From: Candidatus Latescibacterota bacterium
GTDB taxonomy: Bacteria > Latescibacterota > UBA2968
Assembly (NCBI GenBank): GCA_965222605.1
Contig: OZ244960.1
Coordinates: 3,584,001-3,648,000 of the forward strand
Length of the DNA stretch: 64,000 nucleotides
Reading direction: 5' to 3'
Every line of letters starts with the position of its first letter. The stretch's first letter is position 1. Shown here one piece after another: positions 11,280 through 17,826 of this stretch. Below the pieces are notes generated by a model that was not told the DNA's origin, ran no database searches, and saw nothing but the letters and a program-made list of their open reading frames with translations. The position numbers were made by a program, and so were the translations under genes.

Positions 11280-12014
11280 CTATCGCGTGAAGATGCTGCC
11301 GCGAAGATAATCGGCTTCGTCAGATACAAGGAAGGACAGTATTTTGCCCACGCCTTCGGGGTCGCCGAGTCCGGCTGCCATTTTTGAGACATCGCGTCCT
11401 GCGGCGTCGGCTTGTTTTTGTACAACGCGCATTTTGAGCGGTGTTTCAATTCCGCCTGGGCATACGCCGTGGACGCGGATGTTGCGATTGCCCAGTTGGG
11501 CTGCCAGGACGAGAGAGAGGCCGTGGACGCCGCCTTTGCTGGAGCCGTAAGCGACGGATGAGCTTCCACCTTTGACGCCCGCGCCAGAGGCGATGAGTAC
11601 GATGACGCCTTTGTCGGCTTTTTCCATTAATGGTACGGTGTATTTTGAGGCGAGAAAACTGCCTTTCAAATTGATGTCTATGACTCTGTCCCAGGTGAAT
11701 TCATCAAATTCATCGACGGGAACGAGTGCGCCTTCGAGGATGCCGGCGGCGTTGATTAATCCATCGATGTGCCCGAAGGTGTTGCCGATGTTTTCAAAGA
11801 GCGCGCGTACCTGATTCTCTTCTTTTATGTCTGCGTGAAATCCCGTTGCATTCCCACCCGCGTTTTCGATTTCTCGAACTGTGCGTTCCACTCCCGCTCC
11901 GTCCAGATCCACTACGGCTACACGCGCGCCTTCTCGGGCACAGCATCGCGCTGCCGCCTGTCCTATGCCCGATGCACCGCCTGTTACGACGATGTTTTTG
12001 TTTTGTAATCTCAT
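11280..12014 (-). CDS. SDR family NAD(P)-dependent oxidoreductase
   Basis: VTGGASGIG, INAAG and YGSSK; start taken at MRLQ (RBS AAAGGAG). Confidence 0.9.
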   Translation of the reverse strand: MRLQNKNIVVTGGASGIGQAAARCCAREGARVAVVDLDGAGVERTVREIENAGGNATGFHADIKEENQVRALFENIGNTFGHIDGLINAAGILEGALVPVDEFDEFTWDRVIDINLKGSFLASKYTVPLMEKADKGVIVLIASGAGVKGGSSSVAYGSSKGGVHGLSLVLAAQLGNRNIRVHGVCPGGIETPLKMRVVQKQADAAGRDVSKMAAGLGDPEGVGKILSFLVSDEADYLRGSIFTR

Positions 12015-12037
12015 GGGTTCTCCTTTTTCAAAGACCA

Positions 12038-12541
12038 TTAAGGCTCATGGTCACCAGTCTCCACGCGATAGACTTCCATGCCTCGTGATTCGTAATTTTG
12101 CAGTGCATATGGATGGTCAAGGGTGCAGGTATGCACCCATACTCTTTTTGTTTTTCCCCATTCCCAGGCCGATTTTATCGCATGAGACAAGAAGTAACCC
12201 CCAAAGCCCTGTCCGATGAATTTGGGAGCCAAACCGAAATTGACGATTTCGACATTGCCACCATCTTGCTGTTGAAGTTCGCAGTATCCTGCAGGCGAGC
12301 CTTTGTAATGCGCAAACCATGTTCTCAGATTGTCGTTTTCTACGTGTGCTCTCCATTGTTCATCTGGCCATGAGAGCTTATTTGTCCACTCCCAGGGTCC
12401 GCCTACAAGTTGATAGAAGAATCTGTTAACTTGAAATTGTTTGATTTCACATTCATGTACATTCAGTCCGTTCGATTCCGTTTTTTCTTTTAGCGAAGAA
12501 GGCGATTTCATTTCGAGATAATATGTGGTGACTGTGTTCAT
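12038..12541 (-). CDS. GNAT family N-acetyltransferase
   Basis: FGLAPKFIGQGFGGYFL and RVWVHTCTLDHPYALQNY.SRG. Confidence 0.88.
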   Translation of the reverse strand: MNTVTTYYLEMKSPSSLKEKTESNGLNVHECEIKQFQVNRFFYQLVGGPWEWTNKLSWPDEQWRAHVENDNLRTWFAHYKGSPAGYCELQQQDGGNVEIVNFGLAPKFIGQGFGGYFLSHAIKSAWEWGKTKRVWVHTCTLDHPYALQNYESRGMEVYRVETGDHEP

Positions 12542-12607
12542 TGGCTTTTCCGTCCAAATGGGATAGAGATAAATGAGGGGTGTGCAGTGTCATCGCAGTA
12601 TGGCGTT

Positions 12608-12633
12608 GTAGGGGACGGTCCCCGTGCCGTCCC
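12608..12633 (+). repeat. GTAG-type REP-like palindrome
   Basis: GTAG followed by hairpin GGGACGG-N8-CCGTCCC in intergenic DNA. Confidence 0.6.
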
Positions 12634-12739
12634 GTTCGTCATCTATCCATGTTGTAGATTGCAAAAATACATGCGATATTGAGGATAAACAACCTCTTTC
12701 GGATGCCGCTATTTTGGCGGTGTCATTCAGGAGGCTACT

Positions 12740-13501
12740 ATGGGCAGTATTCTGAAATTTCTGCGTGTGCTCATTGGGATGGGGTTGCTCGTTGGTTGCG
12801 GGGATGATTATCCCGTTCAGCCAGAATCAGCGGGCGAGTTGATTGAGGAGATGGTGCAAGTTCCGGCGGGCGAATTTGTGATGGGTACCAATGTGTTTGG
12901 GCGGGATGAAGGTCCCGCGCATGTGGTGTTTTTAGATGCTTTCTGGATTGATCGTTTTGAGGTGGTCAATGTAGATTACAGGTTATTTGTTGCGACGACA
13001 GGGCACGATCCTTCGGCCTGTGCCGATTCCGTGGGGTTTAATGCTGCACGGCAACCGGTCGTTGGTGTGACCTGGTTTGATGCACAGGATTTTTGCGTGT
13101 GGGCAGGCAAGCGGTTGTGTTCCGAGGCGGAGTGGGAAAAGGCCGCGGGTGGCGATGGGCGTATCTATCCCTGGGGCAATGAGGATCCCGATCCGACGCG
13201 GTTGAATTTTAATGGGCATGTGGGCAAGCCCGCGACTGTGGGTAGTTTTCCCGAGGGTATGAGTCCTTTTGAGGTGTCGGATTTGTCGGGCAATGTGTGG
13301 GAGTGGGTGGCGGATTGGTATCGCGTGGAGTATTATCGCAATAGTCCGCGGGAAAATCCCCAGGGACCAGAGAGTGGGGGTTTGCGCGTGATGCGCGGTG
13401 GCAGTTGGGTAAATGGCGCACCAGCCGTGCGGGTGCAAGAGCGCGGCCGGCTCAATCCCATATGGCAGGGCAAGGAAATTGGGTTCCGCTGTTGTCGGTG
13501 A
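12740..13501 (+). CDS. Formylglycine-generating-enzyme (SUMF1)-fold lipoprotein
   Basis: Lipobox LLVGC; FVMG, SEAEWEKAA, YPWG, DLSGNVWEW, RGGSW and GFRC motifs; lacks the catalytic Cys pair of true FGE. Confidence 0.85.
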   Translation: MGSILKFLRVLIGMGLLVGCGDDYPVQPESAGELIEEMVQVPAGEFVMGTNVFGRDEGPAHVVFLDAFWIDRFEVVNVDYRLFVATTGHDPSACADSVGFNAARQPVVGVTWFDAQDFCVWAGKRLCSEAEWEKAAGGDGRIYPWGNEDPDPTRLNFNGHVGKPATVGSFPEGMSPFEVSDLSGNVWEWVADWYRVEYYRNSPRENPQGPESGGLRVMRGGSWVNGAPAVRVQERGRLNPIWQGKEIGFRCCR

Positions 13502-13553
13502 TGCAATAGGGTTGCTTCGTATCTCTCGTTGAAAGAGGCGAGTTTTTAGCCTA

Positions 13554-13582
13554 TTGCCAAGATTTTTGGTATTATGTATTAT
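13554..13582 (+). promoter_or_regulatory. Sigma70-type promoter upstream of the antitoxin pair
   Basis: TTGCCA-N17-TATTAT, 24 nt before ATG 13607. Confidence 0.6.
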
Positions 13583-13606
13583 TCGGTTACGAATAGGAGC
13601 TTTATC

Positions 13607-13843
13607 ATGAGTACGCTGAGTATTCGATTGCCGGACTCACTACATAAACGGATCAAGCAAATGGCGGAAGCGGAGGGGATTTCTATGAATCAGTTTATCA
13701 CCCTGGCAGTTGCGGAGAAGATGTCGGCTCTGGCGACGGTTGAGTATCTGAAAGAGCGTGCTAAGCGAGGTAGCCGCCAGAAGTTTGAAGCTGTTTTGGC
13801 AAATGTGCCAGATGTAGAGCCGGAAGAATATGACAAATTATAG
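13607..13843 (+). CDS. Ribbon-helix-helix antitoxin (HicB-like/YlcI-type, usually paired with a PIN toxin)
   Basis: MSTLSIRLPDSLH...AEAEGISMNQFITLAVAEK...VPDVEPEEYD; AGGAG RBS. Confidence 0.8.
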   Translation: MSTLSIRLPDSLHKRIKQMAEAEGISMNQFITLAVAEKMSALATVEYLKERAKRGSRQKFEAVLANVPDVEPEEYDKL

Positions 13844-13881
13844 CCCAGTAGCACAATGAGGCTGTGTGTGAGGTATATGTA

Positions 13882-14088
13882 ATGAAAAAAGAATACGACT
13901 TTTCAAAATCAGTCAAGAATCCCTATGCAAAACATCTTGCGAGGCAGGTTACGCTTCGTTTGGGGACGGATGTGATTGCATATTTTAAGGATTTGGCGGA
14001 TGAAACGGGTATTCCATACCAGAGTTTGATCAATCTGTATCTCCGGGATTGCGTCCAGACTAAAAAAAAGCTCAAGTGGGCGTCATGA
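13882..14088 (+). CDS. BrnA/CopG-like antitoxin
   Basis: MKKEYDFSKSVKNPYA...VTLRL...IAYFK...TGIPYQSLINLYLRDC. Confidence 0.82.
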   Translation: MKKEYDFSKSVKNPYAKHLARQVTLRLGTDVIAYFKDLADETGIPYQSLINLYLRDCVQTKKKLKWAS

Positions 14089-14116
14089 TCTAAGAGACAG
14101 TCTTACTTCAATACAC

Positions 14117-14150
14117 AAGGGCTTGCGAGATCGAATCGCAAGCCCTTTTT
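14117..14150 (+). terminator. Intrinsic terminator between the convergent antitoxin pairs
   Basis: AAGGGCTTGCGA-N7-TCGCAAGCCCTT followed by a T run. Confidence 0.75.
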
Positions 14151-14302
14151 CTTACACGCTGTATAAGAAATCTGATCTGTCTCTGAGAAGGTGATATAAA
14201 ATCGACGAAATAATTGCACGGATCAAAACATCTACGTTATCTCCGATTGTGTTGAGATAGGATCTGATTCCCAGTATTTGATGTCGTAGTTCAAAAAAAA
14301 TA

Positions 14303-14623
14303 TCAAATCAAAGCCACGTCAATAGTTTCCTCTGTTTTGTGGCCTAATTTCGAACGCACTCGGATTTCGATATGGTGATCCAGTTTTCCCAACAGAGAGA
14401 ACAGACAATCGATGGTAAAACCCTTTAATCGGCCGTTTCTCAGTTCCGTCATTTTGGATCGACTTATTCCCAAAAAATCCGCAGCTTTCTTTTGACTTAT
14501 TCCCTGATCGGTGATCAAGCGGTTGATCTTATATGCCAGTTTCGCTTTTGCCAATCTTTCATCGGAGGAAGGAAGCCCCAAATCCTTAAAAACGTTTCCC
14601 GAACTACAGGTATAGTCTGCCAT
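14303..14623 (-). CDS. XRE-family HTH antitoxin (HigA-like, usually paired with a RelE/Gp49 toxin)
   Basis: SSGNVFKDLGL...KAKLA...SQKKAADFLGISRSKMTELRNGRL.GFTID.L. Confidence 0.82.
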   Translation of the reverse strand: MADYTCSSGNVFKDLGLPSSDERLAKAKLAYKINRLITDQGISQKKAADFLGISRSKMTELRNGRLKGFTIDCLFSLLGKLDHHIEIRVRSKLGHKTEETIDVALI

Positions 14624-14696
14624 GATTTATTTTCCTTGCGCCAACTCTTGCGCGCGCTCATCCCGACCCCTGTGCTTAAACCCCTTTTATCTAAAT

Positions 14697-14963
14697 TCAA
14701 GTTGTGGCTTGGCAAAGGTCCGTGAAGTGTTCTACGGGAATCTGAACCTCCTTGCTCGCTTTTTGACCCTGGACATAGAGTTCATTGAATCGCTTTTCAA
14801 TATCCCGCAATACATGACCTTCAAGATATTGCTCGCCGCAATACGCACACTTGAGACATGGCACATCATCCACAATAAGAAATTTGCCATCGTACCGATA
14901 AATGTATTGCGTTTGGCGAGGCTGGAGTTCTTTATGACCACAGAAAGCACATCCTGTTTTCAT
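14697..14963 (-). CDS. YgiT/MqsA-type zinc-finger antitoxin
   Basis: CAFC...VDDVPCLKCAYCGEQY; 88 aa. Confidence 0.82.
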   Translation of the reverse strand: MKTGCAFCGHKELQPRQTQYIYRYDGKFLIVDDVPCLKCAYCGEQYLEGHVLRDIEKRFNELYVQGQKASKEVQIPVEHFTDLCQATT

Positions 14964-15018
14964 TCTGAACCTCGTTCATAAGGGGTTGTGAATTTTGGTA
15001 TTGAGTGCCCGCGCAAAC

Positions 15019-15795
15019 CTAATCTAAACTCCGGTTATTCGGTCCGAAAAGGGAAGCCCCCGAGTTAGGGGATTCCACTACTTTGAGTGTGTAGGCAATG
15101 CGGGCGTAGTAGAAAGTGCTCAGCCCCTCAAAGCCAGAGTCGGTACCGACGATCAGCCAGAGCCCGCCCTTGCTGTCAGTCGTGACAGTCACTGGATTAT
15201 CGGCGTTGTCAAGAGACTTGAGCCGGAACTCTTCGCCGCTAACCTCGGGATAAGCGACGTTTCCCAGAACGACCATTGACGCGCCGCCGTTGGACTGGTT
15301 TCCCTTGTCGATGTTCATTCTGAGGTTTTCCCCCTCTGCTACGGGTTCAACGGTAGATGCTCCCGCTTTTACGTACACGCTCTCGCCGGGAGAGCCACCG
15401 ATGCCAAAGGTGTTGGACGGAACGTTGGTCGCCAGGTCAAGGGACGCGAATACCGCGTAGGTCGCATCTGCCCTGAGCCCGTCAATCCGCCTCTTAAAAA
15501 ACATGAAAAGGTCGTCGCTGCGATTATGTCCCTGTATGTAGAGACCATTGCCGTCGAGGCCTGGTGGAAGAGGGCGATAACCAGAGTCGAGTTCGTAGAT
15601 CGATGGCTCGAAGTTGGCGGGAAGGTCGGCAAATCCGGCCGTCCAGCCTTCGGCATCGCTTTGAAAAGTAAAGCTGAACTCAGCCTCGGTTGCACCCTGC
15701 GTGGAGGTACAGGATGTAATCGTCAGGTAGGCTATAAGAACAATGACCCCCACATGCCCCTGTGCTGGCGTAAACGCCGCATGTTGTGCATTCAT
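15019..15795 (-). CDS. Hypothetical lipoprotein / exported protein
   Basis: 258-aa ORF with a hydrophobic stretch ending LTITSC; beta-rich body (GHNRSDDLFMF, IVGTDSGFEG). Confidence 0.65.
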   Translation of the reverse strand: MNAQHAAFTPAQGHVGVIVLIAYLTITSCTSTQGATEAEFSFTFQSDAEGWTAGFADLPANFEPSIYELDSGYRPLPPGLDGNGLYIQGHNRSDDLFMFFKRRIDGLRADATYAVFASLDLATNVPSNTFGIGGSPGESVYVKAGASTVEPVAEGENLRMNIDKGNQSNGGASMVVLGNVAYPEVSGEEFRLKSLDNADNPVTVTTDSKGGLWLIVGTDSGFEGLSTFYYARIAYTLKVVESPNSGASLFGPNNRSLD

Positions 15796-15873
15796 CAGAC
15801 CTTACCCACTTCAAGAGACGCCTCGTACCCCTCATTATTGAGGTAGATAGCAAATTGTCGTGTCATATTTTCT

Positions 15874-17826
15874 TTATTCAGGCCGTTCCCGCACCATTTC
15901 ATGCCCTTCGAGAATATCGTAGGCAATCGCGCCCTGGCTCTGGTCGGGGGGGGCGATGTCGAAGATGTGGCAAAGGGTGGGGACGACGTCGGCGGCGTGG
16001 ATGTAGCCGAGTTTGTCGGTGGGGCGTTCGTAGCCTTTTTTGATACCGGGACCCGATAGGAAAAAAGAACCAAAGCTGGATGAGATGTCGCTGCGCGTGG
16101 GGATGAAGCCGCCGTGGTGTGCGCCGAAGACTTCGGGTGCGCCTACGCAGCCGCCCCCCACAATGCCTTGCCACTGGCCGTAGTACCCGCTGACGAACCC
16201 GTGATCCCAGGCGAAAATGACATCGCCGCACTGGTCGCCCCATTGCCCGAGTATGTACGCGTCGCGTCTGGGCAGGGCGATGGCAACGACATTGCGATCG
16301 ATTTCTTCATCGACCCAGGTGCGAAGGGCGAGGAGGACATCGCGTTCGATTTTGTCGAATTTGGGACCGGGTTCGGCGTTGATCCAGATGTCGAATCCCT
16401 TGTCATCTTTAAGGTAGGCGCGGGTTTTTTCAAAGTCGATTTCGCGTTCCAGGACTTCATCGCGCTCGACACCGTCGCTGGCGTCTTCTTTCAGGACGGT
16501 AAATCCACTGTCGTGCAGGAATTTTCGGATATTGGCGATGCGCACATCTGGTGAGGCACCGTGATCGGAAAGCACGCCGACATAAGTGGTATCATCGGCG
16601 GCATCCCACATCCGTTTTAAAATTTTGTCGCCAACGATGTAGGCTTTGCGGAAAAGGTGCATGACATCGTCGGCTTTGTCGGGGTCGTAAGCCGGGCAAA
16701 CCGGATCGACGCCGTCGAGGTGGATGTGGTTGATGTAGTCGTAGAGATGCCAGTGACAGATAAAGAAACTGGCATCTTTTTTGTGGAGCATATAATTGGC
16801 TACGTCGGCAAACCAGAGGCCCTGATATTCGCATTCTTCAAGGGCGGTGTCATAGTCGGTCATGCCAGAGGTGTAGGGTGTCATGGAGGCGTGTTCTTGA
16901 TAGGGGCCAAAGCGCTGGATGAGTTCGTCGGCGAGGTCATCTGGATATGTGAAACCATCGCCATAAGTGATCTGAGAGCGGTAGAGCTTGAGATGGGAGC
17001 CATCGGGTTCGAGTTCGAGGAGTTTGAAGCGCACAGAGGCGCGTTGTTCGCGGCTTTCGATGCGGAAGGGTTCGATGGCCCAGTTGCTCCACGCGCCCGT
17101 GCTGGCTTCGGCGATGTGGTCGTCGCCATTTTGGGATCGGCAGACGCGCAGTGTGTCGTATCCGCTGTTGGATTTGGCAAAGACGAGCAGGTGAAAGCGG
17201 TTGATGTCGCCACCGAGGCGCGCGTGGATTTCAATGGTGGAAGCGAGGGGCGGGGCAGCGCTTTGCGGAAGATTTGTCCAGTCCTTTGCAGGCGATAGTG
17301 CTGGGATGGGTTCTATGCTTCGCTGTCTTCGGCGAACGGCTGTGCCGTCGTGGTCCATTTGTACGATTTCTTCGACGTGTTCGGCGGTGGTATAAGCCTG
17401 TGCTGCGGCGATTTCATAGTCGGTGCTGGCGTGCCCGGGGTGACCAAATCCGTCGATTACATATCCTTTTTCCACGCCTGATGGATGCGCTGCCGGATAG
17501 TGCAGGGCAACGCCTTTGCGCCCTTCGCGCTCGAGGGCGTTCCACAAGCGTTGGGCATTGTTGGCGCGACCGTCAAAAGAGTTGACGCGTTCGCCGGGAC
17601 CTACTTCAACGCGCCAGCGCGAGACACTGTGTGTGCCGGTGTGTGCGCCGGTGGAGAGGGTTGCCCAGTTGGTGGGTGTCCAGACGGGGAAGGAGGGAAA
17701 GGTTTCGTTGACTGCGCCTTCGTCGAGCATGCGTTTAAAAGTTGGGAGAACGCCTTCGTCGGCAAAGTATTTCATCATGGGGGTGATGAAGCCGTCCATG
17801 CCGTAGGCGATGATTTTTTTTGACAT
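15874..17826 (-). CDS. Alkaline phosphatase superfamily, type I phosphodiesterase/nucleotide pyrophosphatase
   Basis: YGMDG, TPTNWATLSTG..TGTHSV, LSDHG, GAHHG and DVVPTL motifs. Confidence 0.85.
   Translation of the reverse strand: MSKKIIAYGMDGFITPMMKYFADEGVLPTFKRMLDEGAVNETFPSFPVWTPTNWATLSTGAHTGTHSVSRWRVEVGPGERVNSFDGRANNAQRLWNALEREGRKGVALHYPAAHPSGVEKGYVIDGFGHPGHASTDYEIAAAQAYTTAEHVEEIVQMDHDGTAVRRRQRSIEPIPALSPAKDWTNLPQSAAPPLASTIEIHARLGGDINRFHLLVFAKSNSGYDTLRVCRSQNGDDHIAEASTGAWSNWAIEPFRIESREQRASVRFKLLELEPDGSHLKLYRSQITYGDGFTYPDDLADELIQRFGPYQEHASMTPYTSGMTDYDTALEECEYQGLWFADVANYMLHKKDASFFICHWHLYDYINHIHLDGVDPVCPAYDPDKADDVMHLFRKAYIVGDKILKRMWDAADDTTYVGVLSDHGASPDVRIANIRKFLHDSGFTVLKEDASDGVERDEVLEREIDFEKTRAYLKDDKGFDIWINAEPGPKFDKIERDVLLALRTWVDEEIDRNVVAIALPRRDAYILGQWGDQCGDVIFAWDHGFVSGYYGQWQGIVGGGCVGAPEVFGAHHGGFIPTRSDISSSFGSFFLSGPGIKKGYERPTDKLGYIHAADVVPTLCHIFDIAPPDQSQGAIAYDILEGHEMVRERPE

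Follow-up and report, generated by a model that had tools for sequence, protein, structure and literature searches.

An array of four toxin-less antitoxin genes, probably an eroded remnant of type II toxin-antitoxin cassettes, in a sponge-associated member of the Latescibacterota

The array and the scars of its lost toxins

The DNA analysed here (the window, 64,000 nucleotides) is part of a single 6.34-Mb contig, OZ244960.1, of a sponge-associated Candidatus Latescibacterota bacterium whose genome we call G000; the congeners with which it is compared, also given G numbers, are metagenome-assembled genomes of Candidatus Latescibacterota. Between a gene with an FGE-sulfatase domain and a gene for a protein of 258 amino acids (aa) lie four small intact genes in two convergent pairs, A1 to A4, which encode antitoxins of four different families (Table 1). 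No toxin-family open reading frame (ORF) is present in the ORF listing of positions 13502-15018, none of the four genes belongs to a complete type II module, and the only toxin remains upstream of them are tails of 11-36 bases. We put at about 60% the probability that the array represents what erosion has left of four type II toxin-antitoxin cassettes (PIN with ribbon-helix-helix, or RHH; BrnT-BrnA; Gp49/RelE-HTH_37; and DUF4258-YgiT), whose orphan antitoxins are under constraint and have been kept for a benefit.

An initial annotation of the window, made from its letters, had described the four genes as intact antitoxins of these families, with a promoter, a terminator and no toxin ORF, and had pointed to three short stop-ended frames as the last codons of lost toxins. 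The ORF coordinates and the Pfam and NCBIfam matches agree with the places and families given, the interval above is without a toxin-family ORF, both the promoter and the terminator were recovered by our scans, and the three frames read as they were written. A short stop-ended frame is trivial by itself, because any gene that starts with ATGA closes another frame at that point; the evidence that the relics are real therefore lies in the intact cassettes of congeneric species with which they were compared, and not in the frames themselves.

Table 1. Features of the antitoxin array and its flanks (positions in the window; RBS, ribosome-binding site)
Feature	Positions	Strand	Basis
Sigma-70-like promoter of the former PIN-A1 operon (TTGCCA, 17 nt, TATTAT)	13554-13582	+	promoter scan, 10/12 matches
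Deletion scar, 8 bases in place of ~415 bases of PIN coding sequence (G017)	13583-13590	+	blastn breakpoints 13582, 13591
Last codons of the deleted PIN_3 toxin (RIGALS, stop), with the A1 RBS AGGAG	13591-13610	+	alignment to the G017 PIN 3' end
A1, RHH antitoxin, 78 aa, intact	13607-13843	+	Pfam HicB 37, FitA-like_RHH 28 (cut-off 27), RHH_1 26 bits
About 11 bases of the deleted BrnT 3' end, with the A2 RBS GAGG; fourth relic	13871-13882	+	homology to BrnT-A2 cassettes starts at 13871
A2, BrnA/CopG-type antitoxin, 68 aa, intact	13882-14088	+	CopG_antitoxin PF12441 29.7 bits (cut-off 28); BrnA_antitoxin PF14384 28.9 bits (cut-off 26.1)
A3, HTH_37 (HigA-like XRE) antitoxin, 106 aa, intact	14303-14623	-	Pfam HTH_37 PF13744, 70.3 bits
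Last 8 sense codons and stop (...AQELAQGK, stop) of the deleted Gp49/RelE-like toxin, with the A3 RBS AAGGA	14627-14653	-	alignment to G020
3-base scar (14654-14656), then retained 5' region of the toxin-A3 cassette	14654-14713	-	comparison with G020, G014
A4, YgiT-type zinc-finger antitoxin, 88 aa, intact	14697-14963	-	TIGR03831, 50.2 bits
Last 12 codons and stop (PKFTTPYERGSE, stop) of the deleted DUF4258 toxin, with the A4 RBS GAGG and ATGA overlap	14960-14999	-	12/12 residues identical to congeners
Intrinsic terminator lying between the convergent gene pairs; hairpin stem of 12 pairs (7 G-C)	14117-14147	+	terminator scan
FGE-sulfatase-domain gene, left flank of the array	12740-13501	+	Pfam, 186.7 bits
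258-aa gene, right flank of the array	15019-15795	-	no Pfam match

The A1 protein is 96% identical to the A1 found behind an intact PIN gene in G017, where the upstream protein belongs to PIN_3 (Pfam E 8.9e-19). Its RHH match and the PIN gene directly upstream in the G017 cassette mark A1 as a PIN-partnered RHH antitoxin, and its paralogues in its own genome stand behind PIN genes at three places. The promoter that now lies immediately before A1 precedes the intact PIN gene in G017, and the 8-base filler with its junction recurs in G012, G019, G020 and G011. The frame LRIGALS-stop, taken in the initial annotation for a PIN C-terminus, matches the end of the G017 toxin (...ERIGVLS-stop); the two have RIG-LS-stop in common, and the TGA overlaps the ATG of A1 (ATGA). 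TTGCCA is kept in all six of the alleles that retain the A1 promoter and the -10 box is TATAAT in five of the six. The total of promoter-like sites in the region is not above that of shuffled sequence.

For A3, the window protein is 89-92% identical to the A3 proteins behind intact Gp49-family toxins (Gp49, 77.7 bits in Pfam) in G020, G014, G008 and G005, and it pairs an HTH_37 domain with a Gp49 toxin upstream in these four genomes. The window frame ERAQELAQGK-stop, previously assigned to a RelE/Gp49 C-terminus, agrees with the end of the G020 Gp49 toxin (...KRAQELAQGE-stop) in 8 of 10 residues and 25 of 27 bases. Three scar bases replace 334-335 bases of the G020 and G014 cassettes, which lie at another chromosomal place, and the toxin start codon survives at 14661-14659, out of frame with the toxin tail. 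The same scar is present in G019, and one metatranscriptome contig has the undeleted form of the cassette, with 331 letters between. In G011 (L060 2120-2497) an intact A3 follows a Gp49-family toxin that, set against the G005 copy, has lost 20 internal residues in frame, which is a different route to toxin inactivation. In G015 (L021), A3 runs from residue 101 onwards into the tail of another small protein, the one encoded before the VapC-like PIN gene of G007 and G012; the fusion marks a deletion joining two cassettes.

Upstream of A4, the relic is identical in all 12 residues to the end of the DUF4258 toxins (...PKFTTPYERGSE-stop) of G003, G002 and one G005 copy; the initial annotation had likened the frame at 14960-14998 to a DUF4258 C-terminus. 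A tblastn search with the G003 toxin recovers exactly this piece, and DNA homology to the DUF4258 cassettes extends precisely to 14999 and gives way there to the flank of the 258-aa gene. The DUF4258 gene (74.9 bits) overlaps the start of A4 in G002, G003, G005 and G008. At its other end, the last two codons and the stop of the window A4 derive from the neighbouring A3 cassette (junction 14706-14713), and A4 alleles behind intact DUF4258 genes match residues 1-86 or 1-88. The label YgiT/MqsA-like, under which A4 was first described, holds for the YgiT finger (TIGR03831) and fails for MqsA: PF15731 gives 24.8 bits (cut-off 30) and TIGR03830 gives 31.5 (cut-off 61.8), each over the first half of the model only, and A4 consists of the finger without the C-terminal XRE helix-turn-helix (HTH) of MqsA. 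We also rejected a split MqsA made of the A4 finger and the A3 HTH, because in congeners the two proteins come from distinct cassettes, each with a toxin of its own.

The pairing of A4 with its lost partner was also modelled. The predicted complex of the window A4 with the G003 DUF4258 toxin scored 0.77 against 0.01 for the best control. Of 78 solved complexes 51 attain this mark, as do 2 of 108 mismatched pairs; three runs share at least 90% of contacts, and the partner has a predicted local distance difference test (pLDDT) score of at least 87. A close relative of a true partner can also pass such a prediction, and one of the changes private to the window A4, at residue 47, falls inside the modelled interface. 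The model supports as plausible the binding of the window A4, the most changed of the four orphans, to a DUF4258 toxin.

The relic of BrnT, absent from the initial annotation, is the weakest of the four because it is only about 11 bases long. It matches the last BrnT codons (...ERYML-stop) of G004, G005, G013 and G002, and in these four congeners an A2 that is 90-93% identical to that of the window stands behind an intact BrnT gene (BrnT_toxin, 105.6 bits in Pfam). With the Pfam BrnA and CopG_antitoxin matches above cut-off and BrnT upstream in these genomes, A2 is assigned to BrnA, and it scores only 20.6 bits against the NCBIfam BrnA equivalog (cut-off 60). The terminator hairpin moves together with the A2 cassette in congeners and occurs in only four copies in the genome.

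Each of the four deletions stops 0-22 bases upstream of the antitoxin RBS, and A1 and A3 also keep the upstream region of the cassette. Judged from these sequence comparisons, it is nearly certain that the array arose through four separate deletions of toxin genes.

A variable island and its erosion within the genus

A DNA search of 40 relatives located the same site in about 20 congeneric species, which differ in what it contains, and the loci were fetched and compared. G019 carries all four antitoxin genes toxin-less as in the window, with the A1 and A3 scars common to both. G015 has the gene order of the window and different A1 and A3 scars, which indicates that its toxins were lost independently. 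More generally, the same cassette bears different scars in different genomes (four types for A1; two for A3 plus one copy without a tail; for A4, three lengths of tail, of 36, 27 and 31 bases, a toxin truncated at its 5' end and a form behind HicA), which shows the deletions to have been independent and repeated. In most of the distinct scars, 0 to about 40 bases survive of a toxin gene of 290-440 bases, and the deletion ends just upstream of the Shine-Dalgarno sequence; longer remnants are found in G014 (PIN), G001 (DUF4258) and G010 (BrnT). The tail lengths were read from the upstream sequences. The scar types are not all independent of one another, and no formal probability is attached to this pattern. 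In the tree of the FGE-sulfatase gene, G015 stands beside G006, in which the site is empty and the whole island lost, and G000 and G019 occupy separate unresolved early branches outside the clade that unites the remaining 14 ingroup genomes; the tree of this gene is therefore not simply mirrored in the content of the island.

Among the fetched loci, which are the scope of these counts, 25 of the 38 intact antitoxins are without an intact toxin (Table 2), and none of the 13 intact toxins is without an intact antitoxin. The A2 of G016 has no ATG at the aligned start and was counted as damaged.

Table 2. State of the four cassettes in the fetched loci
Cassette	Copies	Antitoxin intact	With intact toxin	Further toxin copies
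A1	9	8	1	
A2	16	11	4	
A3	9	8	4	one with a 20-residue in-frame internal deletion
A4	13	11	4	one 5'-truncated
Total	47	38	13	

The initial annotation had raised the matter of similar arrays with variable content in relatives, and they exist, as the four-gene arrangement of G019 and G015 and the empty site of G006 illustrate. It had also described repeated, precise toxin loss with retention of the antitoxins, and their clustering into a library. Loss and retention are borne out, by the junctions with intact cassettes and by the selection on the orphans described below. The assembly of a library is not: because the site is a variable island with intact cassettes in congeners, the cluster was inherited from a toxin-antitoxin spot and not built from orphans, and it is the remnant of complete cassettes that existed before, parts of which congeners still hold intact. 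The genus offers a base-resolved natural series of toxin-antitoxin erosion, in which the states of the same four cassettes range from the complete pair, through a truncated or internally deleted toxin and an antitoxin that has no toxin, to a broken antitoxin and an empty site.

Other genes occupy the island in other congeners. At the same site G017 (L016 2964-10428) has cas3, cas5d, csd1, cas7, cas4 and cas1 by Pfam, with repeat-array-like sequence adjoining, a gene set that we take to be type I-C; the antitoxin array therefore borders a CRISPR-Cas site lost from the window genome. Cas-like genes and repeat arrays, judged by eye only, also appear at the site in G020 (L011) and G002 (L024). A VapC-like PIN gene adjoins the FGE-sulfatase gene in G003, G007 and G012; it is preceded in G007 and G012 by a small ORF (the G007 copy has no Pfam match), and no intact copy of this ORF is listed for G003. 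In G007, G009, G015 and G019, a small ORF without a Pfam match is followed by a HicA toxin gene beside A4, with HicA confirmed by Pfam in G007.

Constraint on the orphan antitoxins and what may maintain it

To measure selection after toxin loss, we compared pairs of orphan alleles that share one scar, whose divergence is therefore later than the deletion, using Nei-Gojobori ratios of non-synonymous to synonymous substitution (dN/dS). Such pairs show dN/dS of 0.05-0.36 at dS of 0.21-0.53, as compared with 0.13 for the toxin-linked alleles and 0.11-0.18 (dS 0.14-0.23) for the flanking FGE-sulfatase gene. Pooling six pairs that do not overlap yields 76.5 synonymous and 41.5 non-synonymous differences [ratio of the non-synonymous to the synonymous proportion of differences (pN/pS) 0.15, binomial P 1e-23 against neutrality], and the dN/dS check suggested with the initial annotation thus comes out as non-neutral at the level of the genus. 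The orphan alleles also keep the hexamers of the A1 promoter, their RBSs, reading frames and start codons. At genus level the orphans are shown to have remained intact under purifying selection while diverging as far as the neighbouring housekeeping gene, and on these alignments their constraint is well supported.

These results bear most directly on plain neutral decay, in which the orphans would be functionless leftovers between the loss of the toxin and their own loss, and their intactness a product of timing and of the choice of what was noticed. We regard this explanation as unlikely, since same-scar orphans at dS of 0.2-0.5 have a pN/pS like that of the flanking housekeeping gene, frames, starts, RBSs and the A1 promoter are all retained, and most scars fall within about 40 bases of the antitoxin start in toxin genes of 290-440 bases. 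It does predict the toxin-first order of erosion, and frequent toxin-antitoxin loss has been read as relaxed selection in the parts of Belot et al. 2026 (PMC13617665) on which we draw.

Several observations weigh against a retained benefit, and some of them are what neutral decay would lead one to expect. Antitoxins have decayed in relatives, with truncated A2 and A4 in G009, a fusion of A1 and A2 in G011, frameshifted A2 in G003 and G015, a broken A3 in G015 and the whole island gone from G006. The changes private to the window genome (synonymous/non-synonymous) are 4/0 in A1, 1/1 in A2, 3/4 in A3 and 0/3 in A4, and those of A3 and A4 fit relaxation. A4 has lost the cassette promoter, has none of its own and lies 56 bases behind the stop codon of another gene; because of this loss, and because all three of its private changes are non-synonymous, A4 may already be drifting. 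The dN/dS values are pairwise counts from short genes of related genomes, and recombination with toxin-linked alleles could import the constraint of the latter. Single-protein scans of viral contigs, which reach close relatives only, returned no relative of A1, A3 or A4, and 16 loci of A2 at 49-60% identity; with viral contigs scanned, no carrier of the cognate cassettes, whether plasmid or phage, was identified. Finally, contigs from four metatranscriptome runs (one labelled sponge metagenome) match parts of all four genes at 88-99% likeness, including one 158-base piece of A1 with a single mismatch, but none of them bridges the scars of the window itself. Two of these contigs are toxin-bearing forms and most come from relatives. 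They are no proof of expression here, because RNA libraries may hold DNA, most of the contigs come from relatives and the scars are uncrossed, and a gene part without such cover carries no information.

If the orphans are nevertheless kept for a benefit, the history of the array may be pictured as follows. The four cassettes would once have been neighbours within a variable island on the chromosome of a sponge-associated member of the Latescibacterota. Each toxin gene was removed by its own deletion. Loss of the toxin would be tolerated or favoured and loss of the antitoxin first would be lethal, which would explain why erosion always begins at the toxin. The leftover antitoxins would then have been kept because they still pay. 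Whether the benefit is anti-addiction, regulation or none can only be inferred. The most likely one would be to neutralise those toxins again whenever gene transfer brings cognate cassettes back; the alternative would be a role as small DNA-binding repressors. Re-entering cassettes would circulate among congeners and, for A3, also among co-resident Poribacteria.

The window genome has no cognate toxin at 60% identity or more, only paralogues of the four toxins at 34-57%. Among the 21 genomes of the genus, toxins of at least 89% identity occur only where the pair is intact, plus the internally deleted Gp49 of G011; close cognate toxins acting in trans were thus rejected, as no orphan-bearing congener has one at this level except for the broken copy of G011. 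The orphans might instead protect in trans against the 34-57% identical PIN, BrnT, Gp49 and DUF4258 paralogues on the same chromosome, which do exist, and cross-talk between related systems is discussed in the portion of PMC7354431 available to us. But every paralogous toxin inspected in the window genome has its own antitoxin gene adjoining, the paralogous toxins are of low identity to the cognate ones, and the antitoxins of the window are only 26-55% identical to those of the paralogous toxins, so that protection of this kind appears very improbable. Two further antitoxin paralogues in G000 stand without an adjacent toxin ORF, one of A1 at 55% identity (C1:1919907-1920146) and one of A3 at 42% (C1:1374506-1374832), so that further orphan antitoxins may be present in the genome. 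Near the former, 67 bases of the spacer between A2 and A3 (14152-14218) recur.

The cognate cassettes lie at different chromosomal places among congeners. The A3 family is also found in genomes of Candidatus Poribacteria (60-80% antitoxin identity), with toxin-A3 cassettes at loci L046-L078 (70-78% toxin identity), which suggests cassette exchange between co-resident sponge symbionts of two phyla. Over both phyla, 39 A3-family loci comprise 15 with a full-length toxin, 1 with an internally deleted toxin, 9 in which the toxin is truncated or survives as a recognisable tail of about 9-36 codons (five by eye), and 14 with none or with another upstream gene, and by this tally toxin-less copies with short tails are common in both phyla. 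A stronger form of the preferred reading would make the orphans a standing immunity, maintained by selection, to a pool of mobile cassettes that sponge symbionts have in common, across Latescibacterota and Poribacteria; we hold this to be possible, though doubtful. If it were true, a lineage that deletes the toxin and keeps the antitoxin would no longer be addictable by that cassette, and the eroded island would be both a record of past invasions and a shield against them.

Domestication as regulators would account for purifying selection in a genome without a close cognate toxin in another way, with the RHH, BrnA and HTH_37 proteins kept as repressors of their own or other promoters and not as neutralisers. 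Three of the four have DNA-binding folds, and such a role has been put forward for orphan antitoxins in the sections of PMC7192599 and PMC10790755 that we cite. A4, however, is a zinc finger without an HTH domain, and regulation does not explain the like behaviour of four unrelated families; we consider it improbable. The anti-addiction idea, for its part, becomes directly testable, with natural partners in the orphans described here and the toxins of the congeners. Should the orphans be inert, they would make a tidy example of ordinary genome erosion.

Comparison with known systems and minor features of the locus

In work associated with Saavedra De Bast et al. 2008, a chromosomal antitoxin reportedly neutralises the homologous toxin of an incoming element and cancels post-segregational killing, as seen by experiment with a complete chromosomal pair. 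In the array described here, by contrast, antitoxins alone remain, and they are known from their genes only. For the chromosomal ccdO157 of E. coli, Mine et al. 2009 are said to have found that within this one species the toxin was inactivated first, mainly by point changes, with the antitoxin still neutralising. That is one system altered mainly by point changes, whereas here four systems of four families lie side by side, each having lost its toxin by deletion.

As far as can be told from the passages of each source that we draw on, the nearest published parallels are surveys. In a gammaproteobacterium (Belot et al. 2026, PMC13617665), toxin-antitoxin systems cluster in small variable spots and are frequently lost, the toxin alone being pseudogenised in 185 copies and the antitoxin alone in 8, with independent acquisitions at the same site. 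The variable spot, the frequent loss, the toxin-first direction and the independent acquisition at one site are all shared with the present case. In that set, pseudogenes and DNA remnants are read as relaxed selection, whereas we find four toxin-less neighbours with base-mapped scars and purifying selection; there toxin-antitoxin systems rarely cluster with other defence, whereas here a presumed type I-C CRISPR-Cas system shares the site in at least one congener (G017). In Klebsiella pneumoniae (Horesh et al. 2020, PMC7192599) and E. coli (PMC10790755), unpaired antitoxins are abundant, often in the context of a valid pair, and are proposed to be degraded pairs, anti-addiction modules or regulators; in Klebsiella, 171 of 2253 are "truly orphan", with no coding sequence of more than 50 aa adjoining. 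The portions of these two surveys that we consulted describe no scar anatomy, orphan array or selection test, all three of which are given here, for a different phylum. A phage-borne DarG-like orphan antitoxin that acts as counter-defence (PMC11825919) resembles our case, in what we have of that report, in that a toxin-less antitoxin is kept because it neutralises a toxin of another genome; it differs in being borne by a phage against host defence, whereas the array is chromosomal, in a cellular genome, with no opponent identified.

Toxin-first erosion and abundant orphan antitoxins are therefore already in print, and the present array is a further clean case. What it adds to the three surveys, on the parts of them cited above, is that after toxin loss constraint has persisted on the antitoxins, their RBSs and one promoter throughout the separation of the species, with no close toxin in the genome. 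In the literature searched, supplementary tables excepted and some sources being available in part, there was no account of several toxin-less antitoxins in one array that both maps their scars and tests for selection, although one may be in print.

Some minor features of the locus remain to be described. An integron-type cassette array was rejected as a model of the arrangement, as no repeat family bounds the cassettes and the genes stand in two convergent pairs; by eye, no integrase was recognised among the ORFs listed for 12000-16500, of which only the two flanking neighbours were scanned with Pfam. The 5' end of the 258-aa gene contains 48 bases (15748-15795) that recur at 90-98% identity elsewhere in the genome (for example G000:C1:626970-627017) and in many congeners, and this could be a shared gene start or a small repeat. 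A small gene of about 71-87 aa, beginning MTRQFALCINNEGYEASLEVGKVYR..., recurs in the island of G001, G004, G005, G013 and G017, and in the window (15795-15870) it is apparently cut short just upstream of the 258-aa gene.

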